This document shows positions 29,573-31,288 of a stretch of 64,000 nucleotides of DNA, piece by piece. Under the pieces are notes generated by a model that did not search any database, was not told the origin of the DNA, and saw only the letters and a list, made by a program, of their open reading frames with translations. The translations under genes and the position numbers were made by a program. The DNA comes from Oligoflexia bacterium (GTDB taxonomy: Bacteria > Bdellovibrionota > UBA1018). The stretch spans positions 160,001-224,000 of the forward strand of contig CAVWVI010000003.1 in the NCBI GenBank assembly GCA_963758495.1, given 5' to 3'. The stretch's first letter is position 1. The number at the start of each line of letters is the position of its first letter.

Positions 29573-31288
29573 ATGTCTAAATTTATGAGAAAGCTATCTA
29601 TAATAATATTAAATATCCTATTTTGCATTAGTTTTGCTCCTCTGGCCATTGCAGAAGACTATACCGTTCTAAAAGTAAAATACCAAGTGACCTTTGAAAA
29701 ACTAGATTCTACATCAATTAATAATATTGAAACCAAAATTGGGTATACCTTCTCAAAAAAGGATTTATTAGTCACGGCCCTAACTGCCGCTGATAGTACT
29801 GGTTCAAGTGATAATTATGAACGGTTTGAGTTTTTTGGAGACGGGATTCTGGAATTTTATTTGACTGAGATTCTGATGAGAAATTATTCAAATGCGGACC
29901 CTAACATGCTCACTAAAGCGCGCACTGAATTAGCGAGGCAGGAACCACTTGCCGCGTTAGCACTCCATATAGGTTTGTTCAAATACATTAATACCAACAA
30001 TAGTGGTGAGGTAACGATATCTCAGTTAGGCGACGTCGTAGAGGCTTTGATTGCCGCTATTTACTATGACGGTGGGTCACGTCATGTTCAAAATTTTATT
30101 TCAAGATTTTTTATCCCAATGATGAGTGTAGAGTGTCCCATGGTAGCAATGGATATTATTAATAAAGCTTCAAAAAAATTGAAGCAATCTTATATTTACT
30201 CTAAAAAAGCTAATGGTGAGTTTGAGATTTTACCTTCTCTTCCAATTAATTCAGCGAATGGTCGCCCAGCAATAACTAAAATTAATGGCCATAAAGATAA
30301 GAACTGTCCGGTACGTAATTCCGTTTACCGTGCTGAACGTGATTATATTAAGTCTCTATCACAGTCTTATTCTCAATTCTTAGTAACTCTGCCCATTGAT
30401 GCTAGTTATAAACCATGGGATCAGCCGATTGCAGAGATCGCCTGGGATAGGGATTCGGTTGTTGAGCCACTCTTTGCTTTGAATGAGCTGATGCAAAAAC
30501 TAGGAAAGGAAAAAATAGTTTCTTGTGATGTTGAGAGTACCGAAGAAAATCAGTATTCTTTTTTGTGCTCAATTGATGTTCAAGGTTTTGGAAAGTTTGA
30601 AGGTAAAGGATCTTCTAAGAAAAAAGCAATAAGGATTGCAGCAGCTAGAGCATATAGAAAAATACAGGTAGCAAGTTTATTTATGAAAGACCTAACTAAA
30701 CATGTGGAAGAACATATCAAATTGGATGAAGACAAAGAGAATAATCCAATCTTTTCTCTAAATTCATTTTGCCAGGTTCATAAACTCGATTCACCTATAT
30801 ACGAAGGTTATGTCAAAGAGAGTAATGGGCAACCGACGTTCTATACGAGACTGCATGCGCCCTGGCTTGTAGCTAGCGTTGAAAGTGATCTTTTTCCTAA
30901 TATTAAAAAAGCTAATGAGTCGGCTGCAACAAAAGCGATACGATACTTGAATCACTTTACTTCTCGTAATTTAACTCCTAGAAAGCTGCATGAGTTTATT
31001 AAGTTTAAACAGCTTAATACGCCCGGGAATGAGAAGAACTATTTATTTGGCCTCAGTACCTATCTCAAGTTGAGTATTCAGTATGTTTCAGAAATATGTG
31101 AAGGACCACTGAATCATGGAATTTTATACAGATCTAGGGTTGTTCTTTCGGGGAAGGACAGTTGCGAACTAGAGTTCGAAGGAGGAGCATGTTTAGGTTC
31201 TAAATTAGATGCTGAGGCTATGGCTGCGAGACTTGGCTTGTTAAAACTGGCCAACATGATCTTGAAGAAAGAAATTCCTGGATTTTAA
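29573..31288 (+). CDS. Signal-peptide RNase III family protein with three (possibly four) dsRNA-binding domains
   Basis: Signal ending LAIA; NYERFEFFGDGILE and GDVVEALIAAIYYDGG; dsRBD-like blocks ending GKGSSKKKAIRIAA, PNIKKANESAA, SKLDAEAMAA. Confidence 0.85.
   Translation: MSKFMRKLSIIILNILFCISFAPLAIAEDYTVLKVKYQVTFEKLDSTSINNIETKIGYTFSKKDLLVTALTAADSTGSSDNYERFEFFGDGILEFYLTEILMRNYSNADPNMLTKARTELARQEPLAALALHIGLFKYINTNNSGEVTISQLGDVVEALIAAIYYDGGSRHVQNFISRFFIPMMSVECPMVAMDIINKASKKLKQSYIYSKKANGEFEILPSLPINSANGRPAITKINGHKDKNCPVRNSVYRAERDYIKSLSQSYSQFLVTLPIDASYKPWDQPIAEIAWDRDSVVEPLFALNELMQKLGKEKIVSCDVESTEENQYSFLCSIDVQGFGKFEGKGSSKKKAIRIAAARAYRKIQVASLFMKDLTKHVEEHIKLDEDKENNPIFSLNSFCQVHKLDSPIYEGYVKESNGQPTFYTRLHAPWLVASVESDLFPNIKKANESAATKAIRYLNHFTSRNLTPRKLHEFIKFKQLNTPGNEKNYLFGLSTYLKLSIQYVSEICEGPLNHGILYRSRVVLSGKDSCELEFEGGACLGSKLDAEAMAARLGLLKLANMILKKEIPGF

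Follow-up and report, generated by a model that had tools for sequence, protein, structure and literature searches.

A putatively exported RNase III with tandem dsRNA-binding domains in a Bdellovibrionota genome and its relatives in Babelota

What might a bacterium that already owns an ordinary RNase III do with a second, far longer one that looks built for export? The window, a 64,000-nt stretch of a 1.68-Mb Bdellovibrionota contig, carries such a gene at 29573..31288 (plus strand): ORF translation, Pfam and an AlphaFold model describe a 571-aa, putatively exported RNase III with tandem double-stranded-RNA-binding domains (dsRBDs). The contig's placement in Bdellovibrionota follows from its RodA, whose relatives are labelled Bdellovibrionia, Bdellovibrionota and Oligoflexia. 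The explanation we favour is export of the enzyme into a protist host, where cleavage of long dsRNA would blunt RNA silencing, a reading to which we assign a probability of about 0.45. That the enzyme is exported and directed at a host in some form, be it silencing suppression, nutrition or host shut-off, or mimicry of Dicer, we consider likely.

Architecture of the long RNase III

The RNase III domain (aa 46–184; 29708..30124, plus strand) is of bacterial type as judged from Pfam, alignment and fold match. Pfam places Ribonuclease_3 at aa 83–168 (E 1.9e-16) and Ribonucleas_3_3 at aa 64–182 (E 2e-18), the catalytic acids E83, E86, D90, D154 and E157 are intact in the alignment, and the superfamily signature (E..GD, D..E), found by Pfam, alignment and fold comparison, agrees with the RNase III motif given in PMC5357909. 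ORF, Pfam and alignment thus concur with the preliminary description of this locus, which had read it as a 571-aa RNase III with all four catalytic acids. In the AlphaFold model (18-sequence alignment; mean pLDDT 83.4, pTM 0.57), a helix at the N-terminus is followed by the nuclease domain and by four alpha/beta units; the nuclease domain matches Campylobacter 3o2r with Z 19.1 and rmsd 1.5 over 138 residues.

Bacterial class I Rnc (E. coli 7r97, Aquifex 2nug, Campylobacter 3o2r) has the same nuclease fold and the same four acids, and likewise no Asn/Lys pair of the eukaryotic kind. A housekeeping Rnc, however, has about 220–245 aa (typically some 230), one C-terminal dsRBD, a cytoplasmic location and orthology to the rnc of its lineage. 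The long protein does not fit this description: it has a signal-like N-terminus and three clear dsRBDs behind a degenerate unit, lies away from era, scores 111.7 bits on TIGR02191 against an equivalog cut-off of 166.25, and belongs to an accessory, patchily distributed family. Its gene is AT-rich (GC 0.369, 1st–5th percentile among 1574 long ORFs), and a promoter and terminator scan remained at chance level (10 vs 10.6 and 3 vs 2.9).

The dsRBDs were scored by hhalign against a profile built from 72 canonical dsRBDs. Three are clear, at aa 296–368 (30458..30676; Pfam dsrm, hhalign 98.4), aa 388–462 (30734..30958; hhalign 96.7, model) and aa 484–566 (31022..31270; hhalign 97.4, model), all on the plus strand; Pfam dsrm exceeds its cut-off at one site, aa 303–363 (E 1.2e-10). 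The unit between them and the nuclease domain, d0 (aa 188–268; 30134..30376, plus strand), forms alpha-beta-beta-loop-alpha in the AlphaFold model and conserves Y209, K243, R248 and Y252, but yields only 1.4% by hhalign and gave no confident fold from the single sequence (pLDDT 37.8). Because it sits at the canonical dsRBD site and draws dsRBD clusters alone as its top Atlas matches (0.86, a lead-level score), d0 is probably a degenerate dsRBD. Of the three repeats plus one degenerate copy counted previously, the three thus stand, while the fourth is no more than probable. With three additional dsRBDs per subunit, long duplexes should be preferred to siRNA. In class I enzymes the substrate is positioned by the unit beside the catalytic domain, and it speaks against the effector reading that this unit is the degenerate one here.

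The first 27 residues (29573..29653, plus strand) are predicted by our heuristic to be a Sec/SPI signal peptide, cleaved probably after AIA: they have a net charge of +3, contain a hydrophobic stretch of 11 residues (mean 2.83) and end in AIA (positions 25–27), with a helix at residues 2–21 in the model, and neither a lipobox nor a twin-arginine motif is seen in the N-terminal sequence. A family-conserved strand follows ahead of the nuclease domain (29669..29707, plus strand; alignment and model), in which L33 is invariant in family alignment A3. Might translation start past the hydrophobic segment, as the preliminary description had considered? Between that segment and the catalytic motif the sole start codon is a GTG at V39, and a start there would cost L33. 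The N-terminal hydrophobic segment is moreover kept across the family, in 26 of 29 scored members as opposed to none of 75 ordinary-size RNase III matches (hydrophobic-stretch cut-off >=1.8 within 40 aa, or 60 aa for P0009; fragments P0020, P0025 and P0030 left out); two of the three members below the cut-off look N-truncated and the third scored 1.78. The previously proposed signal peptide is in this heuristic sense borne out, and the family-wide pattern favours an exported effector, against which it must be held that the heuristic is crude, calling hydrophobic N-termini in 893 of 1957 long ORFs (a background of 46%).

A bacterial-type family apart from Rnc, Dicer and viral enzymes

The source genome contains two RNase III matches, the long protein and a 245-aa rnc on contig C1 that is directly followed by an Era-like GTPase (identified by eye from its P-loop). 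A separate canonical rnc is hence present and the long protein is not the sole one; nor does its gene adjoin era, as had been noted. The two proteins are 32% identical over 164 aa, and in the tree the C1 Rnc clusters with its counterparts from relatives (support 96) and at a great distance from the long protein; we reject a duplication of the genome's own rnc. In the canonical Rnc of most order relatives aligned, a Ser replaces the third catalytic acid (the D154 position of the long protein).

Exhaustive search of 1.84 billion representatives returned 23 proteins at E <= 1e-30. Assigned by eye, the family has at least 32 cluster representatives among the best 150 of 10582 matches (E <= 0.001), and remoter members may exist; for all 20 family representatives looked up, cluster size is one. 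Ordinary RNase IIIs dominated word-indexed homologue searches, which returned no family member besides the query. The 80 metagenomic loci among the matches listed, as well as five phage records, matched the nuclease domain only, and 179 candidate stretches on viral contigs (IMG/VR) held no family relative. The family's 36 nuclease domains form one clade (support 95; FastTree, 267 rows, L053 dropped), and the full-length tree supports the family at 100/100 (38 rows; P0020, P0025, P0005, P0006 and P0030 left out, P0002 trimmed). Within it, P0003 and P0021 join the window protein (97/84) as part of a polytomy that points to no particular donor or direction of transfer. That the family is a clade apart from the genome's own Rnc and keeps the E-D-D-E acids in 32 of 36 domains is in line with the effector reading; the acids are incomplete in P0130 and in three additional modules that belong to tandem proteins. 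The loss of catalytic residues in P0130 and a frameshifted Babelota copy count against it. Some members carry N-terminal ankyrin repeats and others duplicated nuclease modules, architectures that would fit the modular behaviour expected of effectors.

Several relatives deserve mention in their own right. One genome (G533) encodes tandem family paralogues of 622 aa and 800 aa, the second with two nuclease modules, one of them lacking catalytic residues; in a Babelota genome (G410), the family gene is frameshift-split within the first clear dsRBD (L025:5551-7805). P0102, a separate protein of 636 aa, combines a signal-like N-terminus with a pair of RNase III domains; it falls outside the family in the tree and is possibly an independent exported RNase III.

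Multiple dsRBDs had led the preliminary description to call the protein eukaryote-like. An extra catalytic Asn/Lys pair marks eukaryotic RNase IIIs such as Rnt1, KpDcr1, Drosha and Dicer (PMC5357909). In the window protein these sites are occupied by Q123 and S150, and none of the 36 family domains has both residues; the family's nearest tree neighbours are ordinary-size (212–395 aa), single-domain RNase IIIs, with weak deep support. The catalytic domain is thus bacterial-type and the earlier reading is not supported. A eukaryotic origin, too, we reject from the tree together with the missing pair. Nor does the protein have the layout of Dicer or Drosha, with one RNase III domain by Pfam and neither PAZ nor helicase matches. 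Non-canonical Dicers and plant RTL proteins (KpDcr1, EhRNaseIII, RTL2-like) likewise join one RNase III domain to several dsRBDs, and plant RNase III-dsRBD clusters, which we take to be RTL, are among the top Atlas matches of the window protein (0.91–0.92). The non-canonical Dicers described in PMC5357909, however, are intracellular and carry the pair, whereas the family has a signal-like N-terminus and no pair.

Could the enzyme nonetheless act as a Dicer mimic? Dimers packed on long dsRNA would then release 20–25 nt duplexes for host Argonaute, so that silencing is redirected or co-infecting viruses are attacked. Single-RNase-III Dicers without a PAZ ruler do exist (KpDcr1, EhRNaseIII; PMC5357909), and in the model the family-specific N-terminal strand and the remodelled d0 could set such a spacing. 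The lack of both the Asn/Lys pair and the N-terminal dimer domain of KpDcr1 and EhRNaseIII, as well as the short products of variable size released by class I enzymes (PMC5357909, PMC4352025), make this very unlikely.

Closer in mode of action may be the viral class 1 suppressors: SPCSV CSR3, iridovirus PPR3 and the ascovirus HvAV-3e RNase III likewise consist of a single bacterial-type RNase III domain and a dsRBD, and they act for a parasite inside the eukaryotic cell, where the window protein may act as well. Their substrates are long dsRNA as well as siRNA, which they shorten to about 15 bp, and they suppress RNAi (PMC4352025). The window protein, by contrast, is encoded on a bacterial contig instead of by a virus, is putatively exported, has more dsRBDs and shows 11% structural-alignment identity to the SPCSV protein. 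Giant viruses of protists, which share this niche, also encode long RNase IIIs made of several domains (Bodo saltans virus, 624 aa; Satyrvirus, Pithoviruses, Orpheovirus), a precedent for the effector reading, and these are the top Foldseek BFVD matches, although identity is 10–17% and rmsd high; the one giant-virus-like sequence in our tree (L038) sits on a long branch far from the family. The window protein, then, belongs to the RNase IIIs, yet it can be classed neither with the housekeeping Rnc nor with Dicer nor with the viral suppressors; by analogy to CSR3 and PPR3, it may work like the last of these and suppress silencing.

Genomic setting and phyletic distribution

What kind of organism harbours this gene? 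The source genome gave 15 RING matches, of which 57 of 60 relatives have none and the other three 2–4 each, as well as 85 ankyrin matches and 32 ankyrin ORFs; hydrophobic N-termini occur in all RING ORFs but one (14 of 15) and in 29 of the 32 ankyrin ORFs, above the 46% background. Signal-bearing RING, RING-IBR, ankyrin, Sel1 or phosphoesterase domains recur in these proteins in front of a common C-terminal Lcl_C/FGE-like tail (e.g. 27825-29321 and 35317-37134), and of 15 tail-bearing proteins scanned, nine have RING or IBR matches (E <= 0.005) and four have ankyrin matches. The tail is possibly a targeting or secretion tag. P0021, sister of the window protein, weakly matches the profile of this tail (12.9 bits, compared with 4.7 for the highest of 200 shuffles), a match seen by profile only, as pairwise BLAST of P0021 against two source-genome tail proteins returned nothing significant.

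The gene's upstream neighbour resembles these proteins. The product of 27825..29321 (plus strand), immediately upstream, has a signal-like N-terminus, a RING-like, Cys-rich region and the Lcl_C/FGE-like tail; its Pfam matches lie below cut-off, but a 42% paralogue with a weak IBR match and further paralogues with RING and IBR make it, from sequence, a probable RBR-type ubiquitin-ligase effector. Further upstream, 26575..27621 (minus strand) encodes a signal-like N-terminus and a weak F-box-like segment (Pfam F-box_4, E 0.04, below cut-off). RING ligases depend on the ubiquitin system, and the signal-bearing proteins of this genome therefore probably reach a eukaryotic cytosol. An E2 ubiquitin-conjugating match was lacking from the genome, a weak result since the control was also silent. 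Together, the arsenal suggests a eukaryote-targeting Bdellovibrionota lineage.

As a route, the genome offers a gspC-D-E-F-G operon with further pseudopilins, so that the prerequisites of a T2SS effector, a Sec-like signal (by heuristic) and a type II secretion system (T2SS), are both present, which along with the RING and ankyrin stock favours the effector reading. T2SS delivers to the outside or into a vacuole, however, and does not itself inject into the cytosol, although some Legionella T2SS substrates leave the vacuole (PMC6617341). Also at odds with the effector reading, the source genome is not that of a reduced parasite: it measures 3.66 Mb, has purC and pyrF matches and lacks a match to the ATP/ADP translocase that is present in two Babelota controls.

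Among the other genomes scanned, the family recurs in a different phylum. Its long form was found in none of 60 close relatives and none of 400 sampled Bdellovibrionota genomes (E <= 1e-34), whereas all three family loci of a species-genome scan come from Babelota, whose members are intracellular parasites of protists: one from Babeliaceae, one from Babeliales and a third labelled 'Pseudomonadota' (G412), the genome of which nevertheless shares its phylum with the Babeliales one. RNase III matches occur in 10 of 261 Babelota genomes, compared with 242 for the ribosomal L13 control. Eight of the ten are family members; the other two sit on foreign-looking contigs, one in a fabF-rnc-pyk context and Bacteroidota-like (G432, L037), the other giant-virus-like (G481, L038), which we read as probable contaminations of their bins. 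RNase III loss in the ancestor of Babela and TM6SC1 (PMC4378268) and the loss of Era (PMC10582724) are already published; the 251 genomes without any RNase III match extend the former from two genomes to most of the phylum. Neighbourhoods of the Babelota family loci read differ from locus to locus, with no fixed partner and era at none. Since eight of 261 genomes carry the family while 251 lack any RNase III match, and since neighbourhoods vary, the family is accessory in Babelota. This patchiness agrees with an effector, even if absence from 97% of the phylum also weighs against it.

Is the enzyme perhaps not exported at all, but kept in the cytoplasm or anchored in the membrane, where it would be a second enzyme that processes RNA of the bacterium itself? 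Among the eight Babelota carriers no catalytically plausible RNase III was found besides the family protein (G410, G411 and G412, for example, have no other PF14622 match), and the signal call is heuristic. Yet the source genome already has an rnc, nearly all Babelota genomes lack an RNase III match, the loci share neither a neighbourhood nor era, and the basic-hydrophobic-AxA layout places the catalytic part outside the cytoplasm, all of which makes this reading very unlikely.

Export into bacterial prey or rivals, whose RNA the enzyme would digest, is suggested by the predators among the Bdellovibrionota and by the type IV and Tad-like pilus secretins of the source genome. We consider it very unlikely, as the family is missing from the phylum's other sampled genomes and from close relatives, yet present in intracellular Babelota; moreover, no conserved partner or immunity-like gene was seen in the Babelota loci read or downstream of the window gene, and the enzyme drew no PADLOC match. 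The proposal of delivery into a host or prey cell is partly supported: family distribution and the secreted ubiquitin-ligase arsenal point to a eukaryotic host, and bacterial prey is disfavoured.

A host-directed dsRNA endonuclease?

How would such an effector work? The enzyme would be exported by Sec, fold in the periplasm and be released by the T2SS into the protist host or prey, by the route of the ubiquitin ligases. Class I RNase III binds dsRNA first via the dsRBD and then via the dimeric nuclease domain (PMC3867540). The long protein would dimerise as other class I enzymes do, and three or four dsRBDs per subunit could provide avidity for long duplexes; cleavage to about 15 bp or less, as by class I enzymes, would remove Dicer substrates and possibly siRNA, so that host RNA silencing or dsRNA sensing would be blunted, as by viral CSR3 and PPR3. 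The proposed route has precedents. In Babelota, ankyrin effectors bear signal peptides and the T2SS is the only secretion system detected (PMC4378268), a system that is core in the phylum (PMC4776705), and signal peptides were assigned to 44% of Chromulinavorax proteins (PMC6561590). Legionella SrnA is an RNase of a protist parasite secreted via Sec and T2SS, but it belongs to the T2 family, whereas the window protein is an RNase III with dsRBDs.

SrnA also inspires the main rival, namely that the exported enzyme cuts structured host RNA (rRNA, pre-rRNA or organellar RNA) and thus frees nucleosides or disables the host. In some amoebae, growth of Legionella is promoted by SrnA (PMC6617341). 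Salvage of nucleosides from the host is described for Chromulinavorax, whose secreted proteins include nucleases (PMC6561590), and such a function would work without host RNAi. On the other hand, specificity for duplexes and the possession of three or four dsRBDs would make for a poor bulk scavenger, the source genome has purC and pyrF matches, and the family is missing from 253 of the 261 Babelota genomes; we hold nutrition or shut-off to be unlikely, albeit less so than the other rivals.

Returning to silencing suppression, we tentatively envisage a cross-phylum effector family of protist-associated bacteria, Babelota and a eukaryote-targeting Bdellovibrionota, whose members would enter the host and attack its RNA-silencing pathway as enzymes; long dsRNA or siRNA would be destroyed as by CSR3 or, in the boldest form, diced to guide-sized pieces. 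If true, a phylum that discarded its housekeeping RNase III regained the enzyme solely as a weapon, bacteria possess, in an exported RNase III, an enzyme equivalent to the suppressors of viruses, and conflicts between protists and bacteria involve dsRNA or RNA silencing. The bacterial silencing suppressors in a 2023 review are AvrPto, HopT1, HopN1 and SWP16; no RNase is among them and the word 'RNase' is absent from the review's available text (PMC10502822). In the literature searched, in which subscription journals are sparsely represented, we likewise came across no earlier account of a bacterial RNase III that is exported, and the family is undescribed within that scope, although the supplements of the papers on Babela, TM6 and Chromulinavorax could annotate members.

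The gene sits among mobile elements, between an IS21-family element (istA, istB; 23915..26163, minus strand, Pfam) and an IS91/ISCR-type transposase (31830..33353, minus strand, Pfam). By BLAST, the latter is one of three genome copies (15315-16838, 31830-33353 and 6690-7913; two of 507 aa, one shorter), and an IS630-like pair lies at 33963-35320. Elsewhere in the window, a 351-aa ORF at 18496-19551, with 13 paralogues in the genome, has a weak C-terminal HNH-like match (IscB and Cas9d models, E ~3e-4), and 22223-23422 encodes an AAA_14 and DUF4143 ATPase that matches the PADLOC candidate PDC-S01 (E 1.8e-53).
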